Part shown: positions 10,439 to 23,543 of the stretch, piece by piece
Layout: every line of letters begins with the position of its first letter
Position numbering within the stretch: the first letter of the stretch is position 1
DNA from: Gemmatimonadota bacterium
GTDB lineage: Bacteria > Gemmatimonadota > Gemmatimonadetes > Palauibacterales > Palauibacteraceae
Length of the DNA: 64,000 nucleotides
Reading direction: 5' to 3'
Assembly: GCA_046757485.1 (NCBI GenBank)
Contig: JBHHYJ010000002.1
Span: 8,073 to 72,072, forward strand
The notes under the pieces: generated by a model
What the model was told of the DNA's origin: nothing
The model's input: only the letters and a program-made list of their open reading frames with translations
Databases searched by the model: none
Position numbers and translations under genes: made by a program

Positions 10439-12505
10439 TCATGATTTCGACGTTCTATCCCCGTCCCCGGCCGCTTCCTTCGGCTTCACCTGGATGAGCC
10501 GGTCGATGAGGAGTCGGCCGGCCCCGCTCCTTACCTCCAGGTGCAGCTCCCCGGGCCGCCGCGGCGTGATCTCGAAGTCGAACGTCTCCCCGATGCTCAC
10601 CGTCCGCTCCGCGGGCACCAGCGCTCGCTGGTGGGCCGGCAGGTCCCAGCCGTCCTCGGCCACCGGCCGCCACAGGACCGGGGCGCCGCCCCGGACGAGA
10701 CGCACCCGCAGGTTGCCGTTTCCCAACGTGATGTTCATGAGCCGCAGTCGGTAGGTCGTTCCGACCCGAAACTCCGTCGGCCCGGGCTTGGACGTCCCGT
10801 TCAACTGAGGTCCCTGGCCCGTCGGGGAGAGCCCGAGCAGCAGGATCCGATCCGTCTCGGGGTCCCACTCCTCGCCCTCGTCCAGCACCACGAAGGCCCC
10901 GTACAGCCCCGAGCCCTGCTGGCGCAGGTCGCTCACGTGGGTGTGGTACATGTAGCTTCCGGCCCTGGGCGGCGTGATCCGCATCTCGAAGGAGTCTCCC
11001 GGCATGATCGCCGGGGTCAGCTTCTTCGGGTAGCCGCTCGCCCCCGCCACCCCGTCGAAGTAGCTCTCGATCTCCAGCCCGTGCCAGTGGACCTGGGTGG
11101 GCTCCGGGGTCCGGTTGATCACCGTCACGCTGGTGGGTTCTCCCTTCCACAGGACGATGGGGGAGCCGGGCAGGCGCACGGAGTCCGGGGGCGGCTCCCG
11201 CTCCCCCTCCTGGAGGACGTAGGCGTAGCGTTTCTGGAACGGCTTCTGGAGGAACGCGCGGGTCGCGGAGTCGGCCGGCACGGAGTCCGCCTGCACGAAG
11301 AGGCGCAGCCGCCGGCGCCGCGGCTCCCGGGGAACCCATCCCTCGGGCGGCCGGATGTAGGTGAAGAGGAGGAGGCCTCCCATGCCAGTCTCCGCGTGGT
11401 GCTCGGCGTCCCCCTCGTGCCCGACGAAGATCTTCCGGAAGCGGACCGCCTCCGTCTCCTCCTCCCCCGGCCGGAGAGAGGGGTTGGGGACGACGTGGAA
11501 GCTGTTGTGGCAGTGGAAGATCCACCCTCCTGGCCGGTCCGGCGACCAGACGATCTTCATCGTGGTCCCCGGCGCCATCCGCTCGGTGACCGCCATGCGC
11601 CGCTGGGCCAGCCAGTAGATCGTGTCCCGGCCGATGTCGCCGCGGGAGTCCACCCGGTAGAAGAAGCCGTGCAGGTGCATCGGGTGGACCGCACCCGAGG
11701 CGTTGATCAGTCGCCAGCGGATCGAGTCTCCGAGCGCGTAGGTGAAGCGCTCGGTGAGCGGCCACGGCCGCCCGTTGATCGTCAGGAACTCCTTGCCGAA
11801 ATCGGGCTCGCCGTTCGGGTGCTTGCCGGGGATCCAGATCTGCATCACGAAAACGCGGTCCGTGGGCGGGCCCGCGGCGTCCGGTGGATCCACGATGAGC
11901 GCGCCGGCCAGGGGGGCGTCCTCGGCGATCCGGATCGCCGTGGGCGAGCCCTTCAGACGCCCCCGGTAGTAGTAGGTCCCCTCGGCGTCGGCCGGAAAGC
12001 GAACCTCCCGGCTCTCCCCCGGCCGCACGACGAGGCTGTCCATCGCCGCCACCCGGCGGGCCGCGAGCCCCCACACGACGAGATCCGCATCCAGCGGGTT
12101 CCGCACCGTCGCCCGGATCTCGGTCCCCAGGGGAACGCGGATCATCGGGCCGGGAATCTGGAGCTCCTTCCCGGCCTCCCCGAACGCCAGGACCTCGCCT
12201 CCCGGCTCTTCCTCGCCCAGCAGGTGCCACACGCCGCGCCGCACCTCGAGCTCCAGGGTCAGCACGCCGTCTCGTAGCGTGCCGGCCGGCGTCTGGTTGT
12301 CGTTCCACCCCACGCTCGGAAGGCGACCGACCGACGAGAGCTCGCCTCCCGCGGCGTTTCCTCGCACATCGGAGAGCGCGGGGGGCGCCGACGGCCAATC
12401 CGAGCCGGGGCCCGACGGCCCCGGGCCGGGGAGCCACACCCAGAGACCCGCGAGCCCCGCCAAGCTCAACCAGGTGAAACGCTGTCCAAGGCTTTCGCCC
12501 CTCAT
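10439..12505 (-). CDS. Multicopper oxidase family protein, four cupredoxin-like domains with unusual motif order
   Basis: 688 aa with signal peptide. HPMHLHG and HCHNSFH (T1/T3 set) at about aa 265-330 precede VHWHG and YMYHTHV (T2/T3 set) at about aa 470-520. The first and last cupredoxin-like domains lack copper ligands (LVVWGLAARR in place of HWHG). Confidence 0.85.
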   Translation of the reverse strand: MRGESLGQRFTWLSLAGLAGLWVWLPGPGPSGPGSDWPSAPPALSDVRGNAAGGELSSVGRLPSVGWNDNQTPAGTLRDGVLTLELEVRRGVWHLLGEEEPGGEVLAFGEAGKELQIPGPMIRVPLGTEIRATVRNPLDADLVVWGLAARRVAAMDSLVVRPGESREVRFPADAEGTYYYRGRLKGSPTAIRIAEDAPLAGALIVDPPDAAGPPTDRVFVMQIWIPGKHPNGEPDFGKEFLTINGRPWPLTERFTYALGDSIRWRLINASGAVHPMHLHGFFYRVDSRGDIGRDTIYWLAQRRMAVTERMAPGTTMKIVWSPDRPGGWIFHCHNSFHVVPNPSLRPGEEETEAVRFRKIFVGHEGDAEHHAETGMGGLLLFTYIRPPEGWVPREPRRRRLRLFVQADSVPADSATRAFLQKPFQKRYAYVLQEGEREPPPDSVRLPGSPIVLWKGEPTSVTVINRTPEPTQVHWHGLEIESYFDGVAGASGYPKKLTPAIMPGDSFEMRITPPRAGSYMYHTHVSDLRQQGSGLYGAFVVLDEGEEWDPETDRILLLGLSPTGQGPQLNGTSKPGPTEFRVGTTYRLRLMNITLGNGNLRVRLVRGGAPVLWRPVAEDGWDLPAHQRALVPAERTVSIGETFDFEITPRRPGELHLEVRSGAGRLLIDRLIQVKPKEAAGDGDRTSKS

Positions 12506-13110
12506 CGGTCCTCCCCCGCGCCGACGTCAGGAAGGATCATGATGTGGGAGAAGAGCTGTCCGGAGTTCATCATCCACGGCGCGCCGTCGCGTCGCTCCTT
12601 CGAGAGACCGACCGCCTCGGCCGTCGCGTACGGCGTGACGAGGATGTAGAGGCGCTCCACCTCATCGCTCAACGCGTTTGTGCCCGCGTCATAGCCGTCG
12701 GCGGGGCCGCTGAGCACGTAGAGTGCCGCCGGGCCATCCGGAAGGTCGAGGTCGCCGGCCTTCGCCTCCGCATTCAACCTGGCCGTGACGTCGCTCGCCT
12801 CCAGCCCGAGTCGCCGAAGCTCGCGCCGCCGCTCGAGGAGAGGTCGCAAGGACTCTGCATAGCACAGGGACCGAAACCGGTCATCGTCCGGATCGTCCGC
12901 CTCGCACACGATTCCGTTGGTGCCGCGCCGGAGCTCGACGAGGGGCTGGCCGTCTCGGTATCCGAGCACGGTCGCCTCCTCGCGCAGCGCCTCGGGCAGG
13001 GGAAGGACCGCCGAGGCCAGCTGTTGCGAGAGCGGCGGCTGCTGGCCCGTCAGGAGAGGAGGCAGGCAGAGCAGCAGAAAGCTCGGGATGGCAAGCGTCC
13101 ATCGTCGCAT
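12502..13110 (-). CDS. Hypothetical secreted protein, first gene of the oxidase operon
   Basis: 202 aa. Signal peptide MRRWTLAIPSFLLLCLPPLLTG. Its stop overlaps the downstream oxidase start by 4 nt. No recognisable family. Confidence 0.5.
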   Translation of the reverse strand: MRRWTLAIPSFLLLCLPPLLTGQQPPLSQQLASAVLPLPEALREEATVLGYRDGQPLVELRRGTNGIVCEADDPDDDRFRSLCYAESLRPLLERRRELRRLGLEASDVTARLNAEAKAGDLDLPDGPAALYVLSGPADGYDAGTNALSDEVERLYILVTPYATAEAVGLSKERRDGAPWMMNSGQLFSHIMILPDVGAGEDR

Positions 13111-13264
13111 GAGGTCCTCCCTATGTCCCGGTCAGCTGTCGCCCCCGGAGTGGCGGAGAACGGAGGCTACGAGGAGGTCCGCCCGCCGCGGGCGGCCGGA
13201 CGCACACCGCGGTTATCGGATCGAGCGACCTCGGCACAAGCTTGGCGAGCCGTCGTCTCCCCGT

Positions 13265-13283
13265 CGTTAGCTTCGCGCTAACG
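13265..13283. promoter_or_regulatory. Palindrome CGTTAGC-TTCGC-GCTAACG between the SARP gene 3' end and the promoter region of the hypothetical-protein/oxidase operon. An extra GCTAACG half-site lies at 13324-13330.
   Basis: Read directly from sequence. It lies about 155 nt upstream of the operon start codon (13110, minus strand). Confidence 0.5.
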
Positions 13284-13343
13284 CAGGCCGAAGCGCCTCC
13301 GACGACCCGCTCCGAGCCGGCGCGCTAACGGCTCCGGCCTGCA

Positions 13344-16300
13344 TCAGCGGAGCTCGGCCAGGCGGTGGCGGGCAGCGGCCACGGTGCTCTCGAGCTCCGG
13401 CTCGGCGGCTGTCCACAGCTCGACGAAGCGAGCGTAGTGAGTGGCGGCCTGTGGACCGTTGCCCAGCACGTCGAGGATCTGGGCGCGACGGAGGTGGGAG
13501 GGGGCCAGGAAAGGCAGATCGTGCCCGGCGGGATCCGGAAAGGTCGAGTACCAGCGCATTGCCTCGGTCGCTCGCCCCAGCTCCTGATTCACGACTCCGC
13601 GCAGGTAGCGCTCGTAGCCGCGAGGATAGTCCAGCAGGTGCTCGTAGGACGCCCGTGGAGGAAGGGGGAGGCCGTCGAGAATCACGCGGGCCTTCTCCGG
13701 ATTCCCTTCCCGCCGGGCGGCTTCCGCCCGAAGCACCCCCGCCAGCCGCCGCGCCAATCGGGACCCCGGACCTTCCTCCACCGCCAGGGTGTCGATGAGC
13801 CGGCGCGCCGTCCGCGCGTCCCCCATGCGCAGGGAGAGCAACCCCTCCAGGTAATACCGGCGAGGCCGGTACAGGCCAGGCCACAGGATCGGGGGAAACT
13901 CCGCGCTCTGCCACCAGATCGGGTCACTCCGCGGGGGGAGCGGCCGGTTCCGCTCCAGCGCGTCCAGGGCCCCCCACAGGCTGTCCCGCGACTCCAGCGA
14001 GTGGGGAGCGAGCGGAAGCACAGCCGCCATGGCTCGATACTCCAGCACCCGGGCCCTCGGCAGAGACCCCGATCTCCGCAACAGCTCCCCGGCTTCCCGA
14101 AACCGCCCCTGAGCCAGGAGGAGCTGGCCAAGGAGCAGCTGGAGCTTCGCCCGTTCCGCTCGGGGGAGCTCCCCCGCGAGCACGTAGCGGGCCATCCGGA
14201 CGGCACCTTCCAGATTGTTCGTGTTCGAGGCGACGCTCGCGAGGACGTGTCGGGCGCGAACCGGGGCCGCCGCGACAGCTCGAATCGCTCGTTCCTGCCG
14301 AGCGAGATCTCCGGAGAGAAACGCCCGCAGGGCTTCAAGCTCCAGGGCCCACCGGCCCGTGGCACGGTATGCGTGAGCGAGGAGGGTGAGAGAGTCCAGC
14401 TCGGCGACGTTCCTTTCGCGAGCCGCCAGCCGGGCCAGATGGACGATCGGCTCGACGCGCGAGGGCTCCAGGGCTACGGCCCGCTCGAGCGCCTCCCGCG
14501 CTTCCAGCGACGCATGGCCGAGGCTGGGTCCCCAGTGGAAGCGAAGCTCGCCGAGCTGTTCCCAGGCCTCCGCGTGGCTCGGTCGCAGCGTGACCGCCTC
14601 CCGATAGTACTCCTCGGCCGAGTCCACGACACCTGCCAGGTGATACCGCCACGCCGCGACGAGCAGGCTGTCGTCCCGGGAGAGCCGGTCCGCATGGCGC
14701 AGGGCCGCTCTGGCGGCGGGGACGGGGATCCCCGAGCGTCCGCCCGCGTACGCCGCGCTGCTCAGACGATAATGGGCCAGCGCGAAGGCCGAGTCCTCGC
14801 GCACGGCTTCCTGGTACTCCCGGACCGCTTCCTCGTAGCGGCCGGCGCGCAGGGCTTCCTCTCCACGCAGGAACTCCTTGAGCGCATTCAGGTTCTCGGT
14901 CGCTCGCGTCGCCCGCCGCGCGACCTGGGTGACGCTCCGCAGACCCAGGAGCTGCGCCGCGAGCCGATCGGCCAGCGTGAATACGTCAGCCGTGGAAGCT
15001 TCCACGACTGCCTCCGTGGGACCGCCGAGGCCGAAGTGGTCGCGCCCGTACAACGCGGCACGCACCCGGAGCCTGCCGCCCACCTCGGTGATCTCTCCCA
15101 GAACGAAGGAGCCGGCTCCGAACCGGCGTGCCACCGCGGCCGCGGCGTCCGGCTCCCATCGGGGCTCGGAGCCGCCATCCAGGAAGCCGAGCAGGGAGCG
15201 AGAATCCACGCTCCGAAGAGCTCCGGCTCCATCCAGGTTAGCGGACAGGAGGCCGACCATCCCCTCCCGCAGGAACGCGAACTCCTCGTCCCCCTGGTAG
15301 GCGAACGGAAAGACGGCGACCACGCCCTCGGACCACGTCTCGGAGGAAGACTCGGTCCGGCCGACCAGCAGCCCGATCGCCAGCAGAGCGAGCGCACTCG
15401 CCGACAGCCCACTCATGACGGCCCACCGGCGCAAACCCCGCCAGGATCGCCGGGCGGCTGCCCGCGGGGGTCCCGCCTCCGACTCTCGTCGGCCGGGGGA
15501 CGCCGTCCCGTCGGTCGGCACCGGGCCATCGGTCGAACCGCTCTCGGGCGACCGCGACGCCACCGAGGCCCCCGCCACGGCGGCCCCTGCCACCGGCTCC
15601 GTGGCGGCGTCACCCCGAGAGCGGAGGCCGACGCCGGCCCGGGCCCCGGCCCGGGCGGGCCCCGACCGTTTCACCTCCGCCACCACGGCCCGGGTCTGCG
15701 GTGAGGGCTCCACCCCGTACGCCGCCGAGACCCGAGCCGCGAACTCCTCGTACGCCCGGACCGCCCCCGTCCGGTCGCCGGCGCTCACGAGCAGAGAGAG
15801 CAGACGGCGCGCGACGACCTCATCGTCCCGCGACAGCACGAGGGCACGCCGAACGTAGTGTACGGCCAGATCATGGTTTCCGTCCGCCTCGGCCGCCGCC
15901 GCGAGCCGGCCGGCGACGGCCACCGCCCGGTGGCAGAGGCGACCCCGCTCCGCCTCCAACCAGCGCTCGAACTCGAACGCCTCCCCGATGAAGAAGCCCT
16001 CCAGAAGGTCTCCCCGATACAGCTCCAGGGCATCCGCCTCTCGACCCGCTTCCAGGCAGCGCTCGAACTCGACCGCGTCACACTGCACCCGGGCGAGATC
16101 CACGCGCAGTTCCCCATCGCCTCGGGAGAGGATCGTCTCGGCACCCAGGGCGCGGCGCAGGTAGTGGATCGCGTTCCGCAGCGCTCCGCGGGCGCGCGCC
16201 TCGTCCGACTCCGGCCAGAAGACGCCGAGGAGCGCGTCCCGGCGCTCCGGGCCACGGGCGCTCCGCAGCGTCAGGTAGGCGAACAGGGCCAACCGGCGCG

Positions 16301-16382
16301 GCTGCGCGAGCACGGAACGGATCTCTTGGCCGCCCAGATGACGCAACTCGACGGCACCCAGGAGGCGAAACTCGATCGTCAT
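13344..16382 (-). CDS. SARP/AfsR-family (BTAD) transcriptional regulator with a transmembrane segment and C-terminal TPR-repeat region
   Basis: 1012 aa. N-terminal OmpR-type winged helix plus bacterial transcriptional activation domain (LLGAVELRHLGGQ...LALFAYLTL..., RGDLLEGFF, ERWLEAER). One TM helix (WAVMSGLSASALALLAIGLLVG) follows, then about 600 aa of TPR-like repeats. Confidence 0.8.
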   Translation of the reverse strand: MTIEFRLLGAVELRHLGGQEIRSVLAQPRRLALFAYLTLRSARGPERRDALLGVFWPESDEARARGALRNAIHYLRRALGAETILSRGDGELRVDLARVQCDAVEFERCLEAGREADALELYRGDLLEGFFIGEAFEFERWLEAERGRLCHRAVAVAGRLAAAAEADGNHDLAVHYVRRALVLSRDDEVVARRLLSLLVSAGDRTGAVRAYEEFAARVSAAYGVEPSPQTRAVVAEVKRSGPARAGARAGVGLRSRGDAATEPVAGAAVAGASVASRSPESGSTDGPVPTDGTASPGRRESEAGPPRAAARRSWRGLRRWAVMSGLSASALALLAIGLLVGRTESSSETWSEGVVAVFPFAYQGDEEFAFLREGMVGLLSANLDGAGALRSVDSRSLLGFLDGGSEPRWEPDAAAAVARRFGAGSFVLGEITEVGGRLRVRAALYGRDHFGLGGPTEAVVEASTADVFTLADRLAAQLLGLRSVTQVARRATRATENLNALKEFLRGEEALRAGRYEEAVREYQEAVREDSAFALAHYRLSSAAYAGGRSGIPVPAARAALRHADRLSRDDSLLVAAWRYHLAGVVDSAEEYYREAVTLRPSHAEAWEQLGELRFHWGPSLGHASLEAREALERAVALEPSRVEPIVHLARLAARERNVAELDSLTLLAHAYRATGRWALELEALRAFLSGDLARQERAIRAVAAAPVRARHVLASVASNTNNLEGAVRMARYVLAGELPRAERAKLQLLLGQLLLAQGRFREAGELLRRSGSLPRARVLEYRAMAAVLPLAPHSLESRDSLWGALDALERNRPLPPRSDPIWWQSAEFPPILWPGLYRPRRYYLEGLLSLRMGDARTARRLIDTLAVEEGPGSRLARRLAGVLRAEAARREGNPEKARVILDGLPLPPRASYEHLLDYPRGYERYLRGVVNQELGRATEAMRWYSTFPDPAGHDLPFLAPSHLRRAQILDVLGNGPQAATHYARFVELWTAAEPELESTVAAARHRLAELR

Positions 16383-16413
16383 GCGAAGAGCCCGACCTCG
16401 GAAAGGAAGAGGG

Positions 16414-16432
16414 CGTTAGCTGACAGCTAACG
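16414..16432. promoter_or_regulatory. Perfect palindrome CGTTAGCTG-A-CAGCTAACG (half-site CGTTAGC, N5 spacer), about 32-50 nt upstream of the SARP regulator start
   Basis: Read directly from sequence. Same half-sites and spacing as the palindrome at 13265-13283. Confidence 0.5.
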
Positions 16433-16652
16433 ACACACAAACGGGGCCGCGGGAGATTGTCAAGCACTGGAGCGGAGGGTCTCCCTCCCCACGCGGCCGC
16501 ACCCCGGTCAGTGGCTGTTCCACTGTTATGTAGCTGACCACCTGAGGAACGGAATGTCCTCTACCTACACCGTGATCCCCCGGGGACGCCGGCCGGGTGG
16601 CCGAGTCGTCCCGTTGACCGCAGCACGACCCGAAACCGATGGAGGAGCTTCG

Positions 16653-17120
16653 ATGCGAACCGCACACCTCATCCCGACGCTCGCGTGTCTGGCCGGCCTG
16701 GCACTCCCCGCGACCCTCCGTGCCCAGGACCAGGAAGAGGCACCGCCGGAGACGCGGGTTCTCACCGTCACCACCTTCCAGCTCCCCTCGGGCGAGGACG
16801 GACAGAAGGTGATGCAGTTCATCGATCGGGTGGTTGCCCCGCAGGCTCGAAACAACCCGAACATCCTCAGCTACCGGATCGCCCAGCACTACTGGGGCTC
16901 GAACTCCGCCGAGGTGAAGATCATCGCGGAGTACGCGAACTGGGCGGCGGTCGAGGCGCCGTGCGGCACTCCGTGCCAGGAGTGGGCGGAGGCCAACACC
17001 CCGGAGGAGGGAACACCGGAGCGCGAGGAGTTCGACGACCTCGCCCAGGCGTGGCAGCGCGCCTTCTTCCAGGGACACTCGGACGAGATCTACAGCGTAA
17101 ACATGAGTCGAGCGAAGTAG
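16653..17120 (+). CDS. Hypothetical secreted protein
   Basis: ATG at 16653 preceded by GGAGGAG. Signal peptide MRTAHLIPTLACLAGLALPATLRAQ. About 155 aa with two Cys (CGTPC). No family recognised. Confidence 0.45.
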   Translation: MRTAHLIPTLACLAGLALPATLRAQDQEEAPPETRVLTVTTFQLPSGEDGQKVMQFIDRVVAPQARNNPNILSYRIAQHYWGSNSAEVKIIAEYANWAAVEAPCGTPCQEWAEANTPEEGTPEREEFDDLAQAWQRAFFQGHSDEIYSVNMSRAK

Positions 17121-17276
17121 GAGACGGCCGGAGGGACTCGGAGGGGGCCCGGCGCCCCGGAGCCCTCTCCGAAGCCCGACCTGCCGTCCGGAGGTGAGGG
17201 GGACGAGGGGCTCGAGACTCTCGTCGAGCGGGGTGGCCGGGCCATAACTTGTTCCGATGACCCAGGGACCCGCCGC

Positions 17277-18083
17277 GTGACGCCCACCTCCCGGGACCGG
17301 CCGCCGACCCGGCGGATCCCGGAGCTCACCCTGGCCGTTCTGGTGGGAGTGTACCTGGCCGTCTCCATCGTGGCCTACACGGATCATCCACGTCACGGAT
17401 CCGACCCACCGCTGACCGACCTCGAGCGACGCGGCCTCGGCGTATGGCGTAGCCACGACTGCCAGGCGTGCCACCAGCTCTACGGCTTCGGCGGATTCCT
17501 GGGCCCCGACCTCACGAATCGGGTCACCGACGGGACACCGGATGCGGAGCTCCGCTCCATCCTCGAGGAGGGGGCCCGAGCCATGCCGGCCTTCCACCTC
17601 TCGCCAGCGGAGCGGCGCGCGGTCCTCGCGTTCCTGCGGGCCGTCGACCGCACGGGCCAGTCGCAGCCCACGCCGGTCGCGGCCCGCCGCCGAGTAAACC
17701 CGACCGAGCAGCTCGAGCGCCTGGCCGGCGCATGGTTGGAGAGCGGAGCTCCGGATCTGACCCGCGGCGAGCGTCACGGGCTCCAGGCATGGAGCCGCTT
17801 CGGCTGCGGTGCCTGCCACACGCCGTTCACTCTCGGTCGGCTGAGGGCGCCGGATCTGTCGCGCGCCGCCGTGGACCGTTCCGTTTCGGGCCTGCGCCGG
17901 GTCCTCCGGCACGGACGGCGAAACATGCCCCCCTACCCTCGGGCGGCGGAGCAGGCGGAGGAGCTGAGCGCCTTCCTCACGTGGGTCTCCTTGAATCGGG
18001 CCGAGCTGAGGGCTCTGAACGACCGCATGCTGGAGCGGGAGGCGTTTTCCTGGAGTGCCGTGCCATGGTGGGAGTACCGGTGA
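17277..18083 (+). CDS. Membrane-anchored di-haem c-type cytochrome
   Basis: Two CxxCH motifs (CQACH, CGACH). N-terminal TM helix LTLAVLVGVYLAVSIV. Met residues consistent with axial ligands. Confidence 0.75.
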   Translation: MTPTSRDRPPTRRIPELTLAVLVGVYLAVSIVAYTDHPRHGSDPPLTDLERRGLGVWRSHDCQACHQLYGFGGFLGPDLTNRVTDGTPDAELRSILEEGARAMPAFHLSPAERRAVLAFLRAVDRTGQSQPTPVAARRRVNPTEQLERLAGAWLESGAPDLTRGERHGLQAWSRFGCGACHTPFTLGRLRAPDLSRAAVDRSVSGLRRVLRHGRRNMPPYPRAAEQAEELSAFLTWVSLNRAELRALNDRMLEREAFSWSAVPWWEYR

Positions 18084-19468
18084 CGGCGGCCGACGAAGGA
18101 CGCCCTCTCGCCTGGGCCGCCCTTCTGGCCCTCGGCGCGTGCGCCGGGACGCTCGTCGCCGGTGTGGGAGCCGCGCTCGCCTACACCAGGTGGGAAGCGC
18201 TCCTGCGAGGCGCTCACCTGACGTTGCCGCAGCTCCGATCCGTTCACGAATCGTTCGCCTTCGCGTGGGTGTTTCTGGGTGGCGTCGCCGTGGTGTATCT
18301 CTACCTCTTCCGCGACTGTCGCCCCCCCGCCCGGTGGGCCAGGCGACGCCTCCTGTGGCACGTGGGGCTGTGGGCGACCGCGGGCATCGGCATACTCGGG
18401 ACGCTCCTGGCGGGGCGCTTCACGGGGCGGGAGTACTTCGGCTACGACCCCGCTTTCTCCGTCCTCATCGGGCTCGGGTGGCTCTTGTTCGCCTGGAACT
18501 TCTTCGGACGGGGCGGGGCGTCCCTCCGTGGTCAGCCGGTGTACGTCTACATGTGGTCGGTGGCGATTCCGCTCTTCCTCGTCACCTTCGCGGAGGGGCA
18601 CCTCTACCTGCTGGAGCTCGTGAGCCGACGGCCGGTGCGGGATATCGCCATCCAGTGGAAGTCCAACGGCACGCTGGTCGGATCCTTCAACCTGCTCGCC
18701 TACGGCTCGTTGATGTACGTTTCCGCCTGTATCCAGGGGAGCGGGCGGTACGCTCGCTCCCGCACCGCGTTCAGCCTCTTCTTCGTCAGCCTCCTGAACA
18801 CGTTCACCAACTACGGACACCACACGTACCATCTCCCCCAGAGCTCCTGGATCCACTGGATCAGCTTCCTCGCCAGCATGCTCGAGGCGATCATCCTGGC
18901 CAAGGTGTTCCTGGATCTCATCGGGATGCTGAAGACCCGTCGAGCGGTGGCCGACCGGTCGGTGCCCGGGCGGCTCATCCGGTGGGGGACGGTATGGACG
19001 TTTCTGATGTTGCTCCTCGCGGTGGCCCTCGCGATTCCTCCTCTCAACGCGTTGGTCCACGGGACACACGTGGTCGTCGCTCATTCGATGGGGAGCATGA
19101 TCGGCATCGACTCCCTGATCCTGTGGGCCGGCCTCGCGTACCTGATCGGGCACCTGCTGGGCCCGCAACATCCCGCCCTGAACGGTGGACGGGTTCGGAT
19201 GGCGCTCCCCCTCCTCAGCGTCTGCCTCCTCGTGTTCCTGCTCGCCTACCTCGTCCGCGGCGCCGCCGCCGGGTGGGTCCGGTACATGGGACCGTCCGCC
19301 CCCGACCCTTCCCGGGTGTTCGAGCTCTTTCCCCTCGTCATGCTCGTCTCCGGCATCGGGCTGGCGGGGACCGCGCTGTGGGTCATCGGCCCATGGATGA
19401 TCGCCCTGGCGCCGGTGGCGATCGGGAGCCGTCGAGAACGCCGGCCGATACGGCCACCCGCACGGTGA
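18065..19468 (+). CDS. Haem-copper oxidase superfamily subunit I-like protein (NorB/CcoN-like, divergent)
   Basis: About 467 aa with about 12 predicted TM helices. Conserved His in helix II (SVHESF), EGH, an HH pair (NYGHHTYH), and an atypical helix-X pattern LVHGTHVVVAHSMGSM instead of HxH. The start overlaps the cytochrome c gene by 19 nt. Confidence 0.55.
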   Translation: MVGVPVTAADEGRPLAWAALLALGACAGTLVAGVGAALAYTRWEALLRGAHLTLPQLRSVHESFAFAWVFLGGVAVVYLYLFRDCRPPARWARRRLLWHVGLWATAGIGILGTLLAGRFTGREYFGYDPAFSVLIGLGWLLFAWNFFGRGGASLRGQPVYVYMWSVAIPLFLVTFAEGHLYLLELVSRRPVRDIAIQWKSNGTLVGSFNLLAYGSLMYVSACIQGSGRYARSRTAFSLFFVSLLNTFTNYGHHTYHLPQSSWIHWISFLASMLEAIILAKVFLDLIGMLKTRRAVADRSVPGRLIRWGTVWTFLMLLLAVALAIPPLNALVHGTHVVVAHSMGSMIGIDSLILWAGLAYLIGHLLGPQHPALNGGRVRMALPLLSVCLLVFLLAYLVRGAAAGWVRYMGPSAPDPSRVFELFPLVMLVSGIGLAGTALWVIGPWMIALAPVAIGSRRERRPIRPPAR

Positions 19469-19642
19469 CGAGCGCCGATCCTCTCTTCGCCACCCGCGGT
19501 TCGGAGGCACGCCGCGGTTGGGGCGTCGTGCCGCGGCACGCACCCGCAACGGGACAGGCCGAAACCGTTCCACCAGGTAGGTCGTACGGAATCCCGCTCC
19601 CGTTCCTTACAGCTTTCGCCCTCGACGCGAGGAGAGATACAG

Positions 19643-19975
19643 ATGGGGTTCCTGGTTCATATCCTGGTGACGGCGGTCCTTCTCCTGCTCATCGCCAAGC
19701 TCGTCTCCGGCTTCGAGCTGGACGGGTTCGGGGCGGCGGTGCTGGCGGCTCTCGGTCTCGGCCTGGTGAACGCCTTCCTGCGACCTCTGGCCCTCGTCCT
19801 GTCGCTCCCGGTGACCTTCCTGACCCTGGGCCTGTTCATCCTGGTCATCAACGCGCTGATGTTGTGGCTGGCCGCGGCGCTCGTCCCCGGCTTCCGGATC
19901 CGGGGCTTCGGGGCGGCGTTCACGGGCGCCCTCCTCCTCAGCGTGTTCAACTGGGTGGTGGGCCGGATCTTCTAG
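19643..19975 (+). CDS. Phage-holin-4_2 / DUF360 family small membrane protein
   Basis: 110 aa with four TM helices. Matches the DUF360 consensus ...LVNAFLRPLALVLSLPVTFLTLGLFILVINALMLWLAAALVPGF.I.GF.... Confidence 0.7.
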   Translation: MGFLVHILVTAVLLLLIAKLVSGFELDGFGAAVLAALGLGLVNAFLRPLALVLSLPVTFLTLGLFILVINALMLWLAAALVPGFRIRGFGAAFTGALLLSVFNWVVGRIF

Positions 19976-20074
19976 GAGCTCTTCCCGGGCAGCTAGAAGC
20001 CAGACGTCGCCGATCCCGGCCACGCCCGGGGTGATCGAGGTGAAGACGATCGGCACGACGGTCGCGGGCCGTCC

Positions 20075-20635
20075 TCAGACGAAGAGCCGGGCGAGCCATT
20101 CCGCCACGCGACCGAGCTCGCGCACGTCGTGCTCCGTGAAGGCGGCCGGCCGATCGCTGTCCAGGTCCAGCTGCCCGTGGATCTCCCCCGACTCGGGATC
20201 CCGGATCAGGACGACGAGCTCGGAGCGCGTCTCCAGGCTACAGGCGAGATAGTTGTCGAGCGCGCGCACGTCCGGGACGTTGATGTCGCGGCCTTCGGCG
20301 ACCGCCGTCCCGCACACCCCCACCCCTACGGGGATCCGGACGTGGTCCGTGGGCCGGCCGACGTAGTTGTGGAGGACGAGCTCCCCGGCGGGAGGCGTCG
20401 GAGGTCCGGGCCGCGGCGGCCCCCCTTCGCCCCCGACCCGCGCCGGCTCCGCTTGGCCCCCGGACCTCGTCGAGGGCTCCAGCAGGTAGACGCCCACCCA
20501 GTGGAAGCGCTCCTCGGCCGCTTCGATGAGGCAGACCGCCTCCCGCAGCAGGTCATCCCGGTCGCCTCCCGCCGCGCGCCGCGAGGCGAGCGCACGGATC
20601 ACTTCCTCCGCGCTCAGCACCGATCGATCAGCCAA
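20075..20635 (-). CDS. GAF-domain protein (free methionine-(R)-sulfoxide reductase fRMsr/MsrC-like)
   Basis: 186 aa. HWVGVYLLE...VCGTAVAEG...SELVVLIRDPESGEIHGQLDLDS is typical of single-domain GAF/fRMsr proteins. Confidence 0.65.
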   Translation of the reverse strand: MADRSVLSAEEVIRALASRRAAGGDRDDLLREAVCLIEAAEERFHWVGVYLLEPSTRSGGQAEPARVGGEGGPPRPGPPTPPAGELVLHNYVGRPTDHVRIPVGVGVCGTAVAEGRDINVPDVRALDNYLACSLETRSELVVLIRDPESGEIHGQLDLDSDRPAAFTEHDVRELGRVAEWLARLFV

Positions 20636-20659
20636 AGAGGCGTCGGCGCGGGGTACGCA

Positions 20660-21175
20660 TCATCCGCTTGAAGGCCTGTCCGGGGCCGCCCCCTGGGAGG
20701 CAGCCGACGGCCCGTCCCACGGGCCCTCCGCGGGGAGCTCCACCCCCTTCGGCTCCGCCACGGCCTCGGTTCCCCTGAGCCGATCCACCGCGGCGATCCC
20801 CGGGCCCGCGAAGACGAGGGTGAGAAGGGCGGCGATGAGCACGACGTTGAACTCCACCCCATCGTGCCCGGGGCCGATCACATACCACCCGCCGGCCGCG
20901 TGCACGAGCACGATCCCGAGGAACATCTCCACGCACAGGAGGAGCGCGATCGGGGTGACGAGGAACCCGACGATGAGGAGGAGCCCGCCGAAGAACTCCA
21001 GGACCGTGATGAGCCACGCCCAGTAGAGCGGCGCCGGGAAGCCGAGCTCGCCCAGCATCTGCGTCGTGAAGCCGACGCCGCCGATCAGCTTCGGGGCGCC
21101 ATGGGCGAGGTAGGTCACCCCGAGCACGACACGGAGAATCGCCAGCCCCAGCTGCGGATGCAGTCCTCTTCTCAT
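20660..21175 (-). CDS. DoxX family membrane protein
   Basis: 171 aa with four TM helices. LRVVLGVTYLAHGAPKL and GLLLIVGFLT match the DoxX pattern. Confidence 0.7.
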   Translation of the reverse strand: MRRGLHPQLGLAILRVVLGVTYLAHGAPKLIGGVGFTTQMLGELGFPAPLYWAWLITVLEFFGGLLLIVGFLVTPIALLLCVEMFLGIVLVHAAGGWYVIGPGHDGVEFNVVLIAALLTLVFAGPGIAAVDRLRGTEAVAEPKGVELPAEGPWDGPSAASQGAAPDRPSSG

Positions 21176-21247
21176 CGGCCGCCGTCATCGGTGAGCCCGG
21201 GCCCGAGACCGGGGCGCAACCGAGCCGCTCGACGGCCGGATCCCGCC

Positions 21248-22432
21248 TCAGGCCACGACCAACAGCGCCGTACCGTACATGAGGAGGAGGCCGAGCGCCA
21301 ATCCCCCGGCGTTCAACGGCTCGAAGATGCCCTGGGGCCACTCCCGGTGCACGAGCTTCCCGACGACCCACACGACCTGGAAGATGGCCCCCGCGCCGAG
21401 CGCCAGGAAGAGTGTGGCGGCGATCGGCGAGTACGAGAAGCCGCCGATCCACGCGCCGCCGATGGTGGGCAGGCCGGCCGTGGCGCCCATCCCGGCCAGC
21501 TTCCGAAGACCCGGTCGATCGCCCGCCACGGGCGCGACGATCGCCAGGCCCTCCGTCGTGTTGTGGAGCGCGAAGCCGATCACCAGAAAGCTCCCCAGGG
21601 CGATCTCGCCGACCGAGTACGCGGCGCCGATCGCCAGCCCTTCTCCCAGGTTGTGGAGACCGATCCCCACGGCGATCAGATAGGCGATGCGGAGCCGAGA
21701 GACGGCCCTCGTGGGCGCCCTGTCTCCCGCTTCCCCGAGAGCGCGGAGCGCGAGGACCGCCACGCTGACCCCGATCAGGGTGAGGCCCACCCCCTGAAAC
21801 GCCCCCGGGACCCGCTCCGCCGTCTCCAGCGCTTCCTCCAGGGCATCCACGCCCAGGAAGATGAGGAGCCCCAGGGTGAGACTCAGGAAGAAGTGGAGCC
21901 ACCGCCGATCCACGCGCCGGAGGAAAGGAAACCACAGGAGGCCGAGGAGAACCGGGACCACCCCGGCGTACAGGCCCAAAAGGGTGAACGTCCCCAGGTA
22001 GCGGGCGTTCGGCCGCGGCGTCAGGGTCGCCACCTCGACCACCCGGGTGAAGGTGAGCCCCGTGGAAGTCACGATGGTAACCTGGTGCGGCTCACCCTCC
22101 AGCCACGGATAGGCCACGGTGAGGGTTCTCCGCCCGAGACGTGGGATCGTGAGGCTCCCGTCGATCTCGAACAGCCGGTAGGCCACGTCCACCTGGAGCT
22201 GGGCGATGGTCGACGCTTCCGGTCCACCGTTCACGAGGTGAACCTCCATCGTGCCCGGCTCCGGGAAGGTGACCCGCTCGATCGTCAGCTCTTCGAGCGG
22301 CGGGAAAGCGGCCCGGAACGGCCCCGTCGGGTCGAACCGCACGAAGAGGCCTATCAGCCCCGCCAGCAGGAAGAGGGGCAGCAACCCCCATACCCACCGA
22401 CGCCCCGAGGCCACCCCTCGCCTCTCAGCCAT
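21248..22432 (-). CDS. ZIP family metal (Zn/Fe) transporter with an N-terminal extracytoplasmic extension
   Basis: C-terminal GLHNLGEGLAIGAAY and ALHNTTEGLAI are ZIP signature helices. The probable start is M29 of the track ORF (MAERRGVASGRRWVWGLLPLF), overlapping the upstream gene stop by 8 nt. Confidence 0.8.
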   Translation of the reverse strand: MAERRGVASGRRWVWGLLPLFLLAGLIGLFVRFDPTGPFRAAFPPLEELTIERVTFPEPGTMEVHLVNGGPEASTIAQLQVDVAYRLFEIDGSLTIPRLGRRTLTVAYPWLEGEPHQVTIVTSTGLTFTRVVEVATLTPRPNARYLGTFTLLGLYAGVVPVLLGLLWFPFLRRVDRRWLHFFLSLTLGLLIFLGVDALEEALETAERVPGAFQGVGLTLIGVSVAVLALRALGEAGDRAPTRAVSRLRIAYLIAVGIGLHNLGEGLAIGAAYSVGEIALGSFLVIGFALHNTTEGLAIVAPVAGDRPGLRKLAGMGATAGLPTIGGAWIGGFSYSPIAATLFLALGAGAIFQVVWVVGKLVHREWPQGIFEPLNAGGLALGLLLMYGTALLVVA

Positions 22433-23543
22433 ACTTGTACACCGGCACCCCGTCGTTGGCGGCCAGCGCGGGCACGGCGTCGAAGAATCCCAGCCAACCC
22501 AGCTCTGCGAACTCACTTTGGTGGGCGTGAAACAGGTGGAGGCCCGGATGCTCGAGCTCCATCTCCAGAATGTGCCGCTCGCCCTGGCAGAGCATCACGG
22601 TGTCGGTGAGCTCGTACTGGTCGGTCCGCGTGCCCGTCCGGTATACCCGGAACATCCCGGCGTGTAGGTGCAGGGAGTTCACCGGATCGAACTCGGTGAT
22701 GTTGACCAGGTAGATGCGAACAGGCTCGCCCACTCCGACCCGGATCGGGTGGGTCTGATAGTAGAAGGCCGCGGTGTTGACCGCGTACACCTCGTTCTCC
22801 TCGTCGAAATTCGTGTCGAAGCCGTTCATCACCATCACGAGCTCGCGGGCGGGTGGGCGACCCTCCGCCGGATCCACGATGAAGGCCCCGTACAGGCCTC
22901 TGTGGATGTGCCGCTTGAGGGGCAAGGTGTGGCAGTGATACAGGTGGAGGCCGAACGGCTTCGCCTCGAACTCGTAGGTGAACTTCTCCCCTGGCTCCAC
23001 GACCGGCTCCAGTCCGTCCATCTCCGGTGGGTGGGTCCCGTGGAAGTGGATCGTGTGGGGGTGGGATCCGGCGTTCACGAAGTGAACCCGCAGAAGGTCT
23101 CCCTCCGTGCAGCGGATGGTCGGGCCGGGAACCTGGCCGTTGTAGGTGTAGGCCGGAAACCATACTCCCGGGGCCACCTCGATCTCCCGGTCGAGGGCGA
23201 CCATCTGGAACTCGCGGACCGTTCGCCCACCGCCCGTGCGACTCACCTGGCCGAAGTCGAAGTCGGTGAGGAACGTCTCCGGGTCGAAGCCGTCCCGAGG
23301 CTTTCCGTCCCCGATCACTCCCATCCGGAGCTGGTGGCTCCCGGGCGAACCTCCCTGTGGCCCGCTCAGCTCGTGCAGCGCCTCCTCTTCCTGCAGGCCG
23401 GCAGTCGGGACTCCGGCCGCCGCCAAGGAGGCGGAGGCACCGCTTCGCGAAGCGAGACGCAAGACCGCCGTGCCGGAGAGCCCGGCCACACCGGCCGCCC
23501 CCAGCTTCAGCCAATCCCGTCGCGTCAGCTCCTGCGGCTTCAT
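22425..23543 (-). CDS. Two-domain multicopper oxidase (small laccase/NirK-like fold), Tat-secreted
   Basis: 372 aa. Tat motif TRRDWLKLGAAGVAG. His-rich copper motifs HPHTIHFHG, LYHCH...HIH, HLHAGM and LFHAHQ. Confidence 0.75.
   Translation of the reverse strand: MKPQELTRRDWLKLGAAGVAGLSGTAVLRLASRSGASASLAAAGVPTAGLQEEEALHELSGPQGGSPGSHQLRMGVIGDGKPRDGFDPETFLTDFDFGQVSRTGGGRTVREFQMVALDREIEVAPGVWFPAYTYNGQVPGPTIRCTEGDLLRVHFVNAGSHPHTIHFHGTHPPEMDGLEPVVEPGEKFTYEFEAKPFGLHLYHCHTLPLKRHIHRGLYGAFIVDPAEGRPPARELVMVMNGFDTNFDEENEVYAVNTAAFYYQTHPIRVGVGEPVRIYLVNITEFDPVNSLHLHAGMFRVYRTGTRTDQYELTDTVMLCQGERHILEMELEHPGLHLFHAHQSEFAELGWLGFFDAVPALAANDGVPVYKYG

Follow-up and report, generated by a model that had tools for sequence, protein, structure and literature searches.

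Which protein reads a pair of identical palindromes that bracket a single regulator gene, and what would it control from them? The question is raised by a 64-kb stretch of a Gemmatimonadota contig (JBHHYJ010000002.1; hereafter the window, meaning the whole stretch analysed), in which CGTTAGC-N5-GCTAACG stands on either side of a gene encoding a 1012-aa regulator with a Streptomyces antibiotic regulatory protein (SARP) module, between two operons that encode a multicopper oxidase (MCO) and a cytochrome c with a haem-copper oxidase. We put the probability at about 0.75 that the palindromes are parts of two SARP-type activator boxes, bound by the winged helix of the regulator encoded between them and driving both flanking operons.

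Exactly two copies of the palindrome occur in the 64 kb, at 13265–13283 (spacer TTCGC; site 1) and 16414–16432 (spacer TGACA; site 2), and no further match appears in the window when up to two mismatches are allowed. A preliminary description of this DNA had reported a perfect 19-bp palindrome 32–50 nt before the SARP start, a second one with the same half-sites and N5 spacing plus an extra half-site, and had judged two copies unlikely by chance; coordinates and gene positions are as it gave them, and the judgement on chance is borne out by an expectation of 0.09 copies, even with two mismatches allowed, and by 0 of 100 shuffles with two or more. The regulator gene starts with the ATG at 16382 (minus strand); site 2 lies 32–50 nt upstream of that codon, in a divergent intergenic region, and site 1 61 nt past the regulator stop and 155–173 nt upstream of the start of a gene for a 202-aa protein (13110, minus strand). 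The extra half-site, a third GCTAACG at 13324–13330, has 10 nt (CGCGCTAACG) in common with the right arm of site 1 and no counterpart in the closest ortholog locus, L001. No other hexamer pair (≤1 mismatch) at 11-nt spacing was found in the window.

The regulator carries its SARP module in residues 1–245 (about 1–250), as an OmpR-type winged helix followed by a BTAD domain. Pfam places BTAD (PF03704) at residues 116–237 (E=1.2e-8) and gives a weak Trans_reg_C match (E=0.033). EmbR aligns to residues 3–244, and an N-terminal profile of 18 sequences retrieves EmbR at 2.8e-7 and AfsR at about 1e-5 over residues 25–251. The AlphaFold2 model of the module (pLDDT 92.6) has EmbR (2FEZ) and the AfsR SARP domain (8K60, 8HVR) as its top Foldseek matches in the PDB, with E values of 5e-9 to 1e-7, TM-scores of 0.55–0.60 and alignments spanning about 260 columns. 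Beyond a linker and an Arg-rich stretch, a single strongly hydrophobic segment at about 322–340 would form a transmembrane (TM) helix, and C-terminal to it are a TolB_N-like region (a weak match below the cutoff, E=0.01) and then TPR repeats. The topology is likely to be ToxR/CadC-like, with the DNA-binding head in the cytoplasm and, beyond a single TM helix, the sensor outside it. The window encodes no paralogue of the regulator. Gemmatimonadota show a strong expansion of the BTAD-TPR family: of the 8000 candidates scored, 493 are homologues at E≤1e-20. At L151:81-8828 three such genes (about 970 aa each) stand head to tail in one operon, and GATCTNN repeats at an 11-nt period lie upstream of the first gene only.

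Comparison with relatives ties the heptamer to the regulator. It adjoins the regulator gene in 14 independent loci, whose regulators are 41–66% identical, irrespective of the other neighbours. Upstream of 13 regulator genes we counted 31 hexamers in 3.25 kb, against 11 in 176 kb for the remainder of the loci and the window, an enrichment of about 150-fold (Poisson P ~4e-56), and 6 of those 11 background hexamers are themselves downstream sites. In L001 (66% identity, from an independent metagenome) palindromes with the same heptamers and other spacers occupy both equivalent positions, and in the downstream intergenic region, otherwise poorly alignable (69% with gaps), the heptamers stand out as conserved islands. 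More distant relatives (41–52% identity) keep the heptamer just upstream of the regulator gene in several layouts (Table 1). The neighbouring genes vary by locus, from MCOs to Ser/Thr kinases to a conserved 150-aa protein with large TPR proteins, leaving the regulator as the sole constant partner of the motif.

We analysed the anatomy of the sites in 12 arrays anchored on the inverted pair and in 13 arrays oriented with a third heptamer 3'-most (L-R-R'). All 14 heptamer positions reach 2.0 bits in the anchored set, with spacers and flanks below 0.8 bits, and the third, partly conserved heptamer (CGTt.Gc) lies 11 nt to one side of the inverted pair. Once oriented, the R' side always faces the non-regulator operon, and R and R' form direct repeats at an 11-bp period in all 13 arrays; the last bases of R', ACG, are kept in 12 of them and the A and C in all 13. 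Counting from R, every array likewise has A at offset 21 and T at offset 25 (13/13), defining a hexamer nANNNT 9 bp past R'. The same hexamer is present in four further arrays (TAGAAT in L002, TAGAGT in L006, TAGACT in L146 and GAACAT in L142), for a total of 17 out of 17; by chance, one fixed pair of columns would be invariant in this way with a probability of about 2e-22. Across relatives R and this hexamer keep their distance even where L, which most arrays have at N5, shifts (N6 in L006, N18 in L002) or is absent (L146, L142). The sites had at first been taken for a simple dyad for a dimeric regulator, a description that does not survive the comparison: what is conserved is a heptamer that recurs every 11 bp.

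This arrangement has a known counterpart. SARP-dependent promoters contain direct repeats at intervals of 11 or 22 bp, with the 3' repeat placed 8 bp away from the −10 element; the afs box of AfsR spans −40 to −19 (PMC10936776). If the nANNNT hexamers are −10 elements, as we infer, then R falls at about −39 to −33 and R' at about −28 to −22, so that the predicted promoters have SARP geometry to within 1 bp. Judged from sequence, R and R' are a SARP-type direct-repeat box in an array of three heptamers, the left two of which, L and R, make up the palindrome. In the sense direction of the regulator no consistent −10 occurs 8–9 bp downstream of the array. We had considered TTGACA (16463–16458, minus strand) with TTGTGT as a promoter of the regulator gene, which would make the palindrome a pure repressor site; we demoted this to a mere possibility, as TTGACA overlaps the better-supported −10 of the divergent promoter and is kept only in the close ortholog L001.

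The assignment of the sites to the adjacent regulator, as opposed to an unlinked factor, rests mainly on the way in which the motif covaries with the recognition helix. The helix ARGALRNA(L/I)H(F/Y)LR is common to all regulators that have CGTTAGC sites. The AfsR residues that contact bases, T88 and R92 (PMC10936776), align with N70 and Y74 in the regulator of the window. Where residue 70 is K, R, S, T or Q, the relatives have no GTTAGC and instead carry other periodic repeats upstream of their own genes (Table 1). Predictions made in advance from the helix gave matching results: for P0023, which has the same helix, the motif was predicted, and its locus (L149) has a perfect CGTTAGC-N5-GCTAACG 27 nt before the start, along with a third heptamer that is degenerate and an MCO operon running divergently; P0046 and P0052, with different helices, were predicted to be motif-free, and their loci show no motif and have 11-nt repeats of their own (GTGATCT twice in one, GATCTNN three times in the other).

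Among the alternatives, the one that fares best is a dimeric helix-turn-helix protein encoded elsewhere, such as a copper or redox sensor, which would control both the BTAD regulator and the oxidase operons through the palindromes. Perfect 7-N5-7 dyads next to copper-enzyme genes are what such a factor would leave in the window, and the genome-wide distribution of the motif, assessed among the matches listed, gives it some room. We nevertheless consider it improbable, since the dyad itself is unconserved among relatives while the geometry of R, R' and the −10 is fixed, the motif follows the regulator through unrelated neighbourhoods and changes when the regulator's recognition helix changes, and the relatives' loci contain no conserved candidate for a second regulator. 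Known operator consensus sequences (IdeR, LexA, CsoR, Rex, HrcA, NsrR and others) were also compared, and none fits. Of the binders proposed in the preliminary description, the SARP itself is thus the one favoured by the evidence and a CsoR/CueR-type protein is without any support; its broader suggestion, operators giving coordinated control, holds in the form of non-random, conserved cis-regulatory elements predicted to couple the regulator gene to both flanking oxidase and cytochrome operons.

A GTDB-wide motif scan, a check suggested in that description, returned at least 120 blocks; among the matches listed, most are in unrelated taxa and none adjoins a regulator homologue, so that no regulon could be defined from it. 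In one Nitrospinota metagenome-assembled genome (NC_groundwater_1753) an identical motif-bearing sequence of about 60 nt (the 19-mer plus 40 nt on one side) is found on four contigs; the sequence resembles the end of a repeated or mobile element (Table 1).

We also asked whether the palindromes act as RNA or DNA hairpins, with site 1 as a terminator or 3' stabiliser and site 2 as a 5'-UTR hairpin or REP-like element. Both fold better than shuffled sequence (site 1, −18.2 kcal/mol, z=−3.4; site 2, −9 to −9.8 kcal/mol, z=−3.2 and −3.8), site 1 is just past a stop codon, and four of the six Gemmatimonadota sites among the matches listed are long hairpins with the motif at the tip, after gene ends. 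Against this, the 12 arrays contain zero compensatory changes, the sequence itself being invariant, and the direct-repeat versions in relatives (L-L in L146, four direct repeats in L140) cannot pair. The window arms are 7 bp only, with no extension; neither site has a U-tract or a called terminator, and no Rfam match overlaps them at E≤1. A role as hairpins is therefore very unlikely. As for those four sites in other Gemmatimonadota genomes (L039:3649, L048:2495, L087:1023, L109:777), the 19-mer forms the tip of much longer near-perfect hairpins built of contiguous TTAGC-like heptads. These follow immediately on the 3' ends of genes and resemble terminators or REP-like elements; the one in L087, CGTCGTTAGTCGGTAGTCGTTAGC-TATTA-GCTAACGACTACCGACTAACGAC, folds at −43.9 kcal/mol.

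Finally, that the sites are chance matches or the recombination boundaries of a cassette around a mobile regulator gene is scarcely credible: two copies do flank exactly one gene, and L001 brackets its regulator the same way, but chance predicts only the 0.09 copies given above, most relatives have the upstream array only, so that bracketing is not general, no recombinase gene is nearby and the regulator's composition is typical of the window.

Several observations weigh against two SARP-type boxes read by the regulator. The R' repeats of the window are degenerate (5/7 matches at site 2, 4/7 at site 1), the −10 follows at 9 bp in place of the canonical 8 bp, and an inverted heptamer such as L is absent from described SARP boxes. 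A scan for consensus sigma-70 promoters and terminators found neither at either site; the promoter scanner needs a −35 hexamer, and SARP-type promoters lack one. Kinship among the loci (L128/L134, with L129 more distant; L006/L007; L002/L003) leaves somewhat fewer fully independent observations than the raw counts. One regulator (L141:527 / L143:5001) has a CGTTAGC-type helix (ARTALRNALHFLR) yet no detectable upstream heptamer, and three loci (L135 at ~205, L136 at ~750 and L138 at ~3705) have a single variant half-site, (G/A)TTAG(C/T), with no −10 at the expected offset. Knowledge of the motif across genomes extends to the matches listed, which leaves room for a separate global binder, and the whole case is a comparative sequence analysis of uncultured organisms. 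In L141/L143 the regulator gene follows a LytTR-like gene after a short gap and may be co-transcribed with it. In the L135/L136/L138 sub-clade the half-site is followed, in target orientation, by GGATACG and GAGAGAC/GGAGACG units, which may represent a different array layout.

Taking the sites as SARP-type boxes, we propose that two protomers of the regulator would sit side by side on R and R', substituting for the missing −35 element, and that the docked protomers would recruit RNA polymerase to the nANNNT hexamer, as in AfsR complexes. Site 1 would fire the operon of the 202-aa protein and the multicopper oxidase, and site 2 the divergent operon of hyp188 (a 188-aa hypothetical protein), the c-type cytochrome and the haem-copper oxidase. 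A further protomer on L could stabilise the assembly or occlude the regulator's own promoter. Because the site-2 array ends 32 nt before the regulator ATG, that promoter must overlap the array or lie upstream of it, so that occupancy should feed back on the regulator's own expression; autoregulation is thus probable, and we would expect the feedback to be negative. The sensed signal probably lies outside the cytoplasm, in the periplasm, because the regulator is predicted to be anchored in the membrane and to expose its TolB-N-like/TPR part outside the cytoplasm. As to the identity of the signal, copper or an oxidase substrate can be guessed at, a guess made reasonable by the MCO genes that adjoin six CGTTAGC-type regulators (those of the window, L001, L002, L004, L147 and L149) and by the HvfX-like protein and ZIP transporter encoded in the window.

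The positions of the genes, of the array elements and of their counterparts in relatives are collected in Table 1, with the gene layout derived from codon-position GC and from Pfam and NCBIfam searches. Those searches assigned no family to the 202-aa and 188-aa proteins. The window MCO is 56% identical to an MCO encoded divergently from the regulator in L147, and hyp188 is 39% identical to the product of a gene in the MCO operon of L002.

Table 1. Genes, heptamer-array elements and comparable features in the window and in related loci. Promoter elements and target operons are predictions.
Feature	Position or locus	Strand	Comment
Regulator gene, 1012 aa	13344..16382	-	SARP module, TM helix, TolB-N-like/TPR part
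202-aa secreted hypothetical protein	12502..13110	-	First gene of target operon 1 (10439..13110)
MCO, 688 aa	10439..12505	-	Second gene of target operon 1
hyp188, 188-aa hypothetical protein	16554..17120	+	First gene of target operon 2 (16554..19975)
c-type cytochrome	17277..18083	+	Target operon 2
COX1-like haem-copper oxidase	start near 18080, end 19468	+	Target operon 2
110-aa membrane protein	19643..19975	+	Target operon 2
Site 2 L, CGTTAGC	16414..16420	+	Inverted heptamer, left arm of palindrome; invariant in 12/12 anchored arrays
Site 2 R, GCTAACG	16426..16432	+	Would overlap the −35 position of the predicted promoter
Site 2 R', ACAAACG	16437..16443	+	5/7 matches, 11 nt after R; identical in L001
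Site 2 putative −10, GAGATT	16453..16458	+	9 nt after R'; predicted hyp188/cytochrome c/haem-copper oxidase promoter
Site 1 L, CGTTAGC	13277..13283	-	
Site 1 R, GCTAACG	13265..13271	-	
Site 1 R', GGAGACG	13254..13260	-	4/7 matches; CCGTCGT repeat with 11-nt spacing; GGAGACG also there in L142
Site 1 putative −10, CAAGCT	13239..13244	-	9 nt after R'; predicted 202-aa/MCO promoter; L001 has CAGCTT at the same offset
Extra L-type heptamer, CGTTAGC	13324..13330	-	47 nt upstream of site-1 L (target orientation)
N5 palindrome	L004, L128, L129, L134, L149		Upstream of regulator gene
Three perfect heptamers, L-L-R	L005, L145, L147, L148		Hexamer starts at 0 / +11 / +22
L-L-R with N6 spacer	L006 (and L007, same protein)		
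Two direct repeats only (L-L)	L146		
L and R 18 nt apart	L002 (and L003, same protein)		
Helix ...LSK...	L130, L133		TCTGAC x2, 21 nt apart
Helix ...LNR...	L131		CCTNTGA x4, 11 nt apart
Helix ...LRS...	L140		GTTGGC / GTTGGC / GTTATC / GTTAAC, 11-12 nt apart
Pfam-less 150-188-aa protein	L005:6636-7142, L006:7123-7620, L145:115-621, L146:3313-3765, L147:3242-3808, L148:3266-3760		
Nitrospinota ~60-nt repeat	L018:2491, L034:3325, L075:118, L122:3391		Each near a contig or block end

The two operons belong to a cluster of copper- and metal-related genes at 10439–22516. Its members include the MCO, a multi-cupredoxin enzyme with a weak nitrite-reductase-like N-terminal domain, the cytochrome c, the haem-copper oxidase, which is divergent, a GAF protein, an HvfX-like (DoxX) maturation protein for copper-binding ribosomally synthesised peptides (Cu-RiPPs) and a ZIP transporter, and the cluster may constitute a copper-dependent respiratory or detoxification module. 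The regulator's neighbours are thus oxidase, cytochrome and metal genes, not a biosynthetic cluster, and the source is no actinomycete, the exact regulator protein being recorded for a Gemmatimonadota metagenome-assembled genome, so that the name SARP does not apply here in its classical actinobacterial, secondary-metabolism sense.

Other elements of these loci were seen along the way. A second palindrome, GGAGGG-TCT-CCCTCC, occupies 16474–16488 in the would-be 5' UTR of the hyp188/cytochrome operon and is kept in L001; it may form a hairpin in the RNA or serve as a further operator. At 13179–13195, about 70 nt before the 202-aa start codon and within what would be a long 5' UTR, stands a GC-rich palindrome, CCGCCCGC-G-GCGGGCGG. 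Among the relatives, a protein of 150–188 aa (...VIDPDVTVAQLLNHASGPLPL...), to which a Pfam search gave no family and of which the window has no copy, is 70–82% identical across six loci and far more conserved than the regulators; its gene is part of the operon that diverges from the L-L-R-type regulator genes, in most cases at the head, and genes for large TPR proteins come next.

The closest precedent for the predicted system is the actinobacterial SARP box (the afs box of AfsR and the targets of ActII-ORF4, DnrI and RedD). By fold and profile the proteins share the winged helix and bacterial transcriptional activation (BTA) module, and the boxes share heptamer units at an 11-bp period with the last repeat 8–9 bp before the −10, over the −35 region. 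The present arrays differ in their Gemmatimonadota host, in the heptamer CGTTAGC and in the extra inverted heptamer upstream that creates the palindrome, and their predicted targets are MCO, cytochrome and other envelope genes instead of antibiotic clusters. AfsR itself is a cytoplasmic NOD/TPR protein, whereas this regulator appears membrane-anchored with a TolB-N-like/TPR part. EmbR of Mycobacterium tuberculosis, the best structural and sequence match to residues 1–250, carries an FHA domain at its C terminus; it is a kinase substrate in the cytoplasm, with neither a TM helix nor a TPR sensor. ToxR, CadC and TcpP have the layout that is likely for this regulator, with an OmpR-type winged helix at the cytoplasmic N terminus, a single TM helix and an extracytoplasmic sensor at the C terminus. 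A quasi-palindromic core together with a second site is also what CadC uses (PMC5430869). These three proteins differ in having no BTA domain, unrelated periplasmic domains, AT-rich sites and another promoter geometry. Dyad operators of dimeric repressors resemble the window sites in their perfect 7-N5-7 inverted repeat within promoter regions, but here the spacing and even the left arm vary, and it is the direct third heptamer and the fixed −10 distance that are conserved. The module and the promoter geometry are therefore already known; what appears new is a SARP promoter architecture outside Actinobacteria, a membrane-anchored regulator and an added inverted heptamer.

A wider reading can be framed in four parts, which we offer jointly as a tentative proposal at below even odds: that Gemmatimonadota possess a large uncharacterised family of membrane-anchored SARP-type one-component regulators, with several hundred homologues and some tandem triplets; that each member activates its adjacent operon through an 11-bp-periodic heptamer array; that specificity is legible from the recognition helix, with residue 70, the counterpart of AfsR T88, tracking the heptamer; and that the CGTTAGC clade uses a three-heptamer array with one inverted unit. 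If true, such an array implies protomers both head to head and side by side, possibly as a trimer on DNA, an arrangement unseen in actinobacterial SARP–RNA polymerase structures. The inverted heptamer poses a concrete structural question for such complexes.

SARPs have been studied almost only as cytoplasmic antibiotic-pathway activators of actinomycetes. In this little-studied, mostly uncultured phylum, the SARP module would instead be joined to a membrane anchor and to what is probably a periplasmic sensor, and be wired to copper-oxidase and cytochrome genes. The comparative data supply an operator motif, coordinates for two predicted promoters and a correspondence of helix to heptamer, and they suggest an annotation rule, 11-bp-periodic heptamers followed 9 bp on by nANNNT, for hundreds of metagenomic BTAD-TPR proteins. 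If the proposal is right, a periplasmic signal would be coupled directly to the expression of multicopper and respiratory oxidases.

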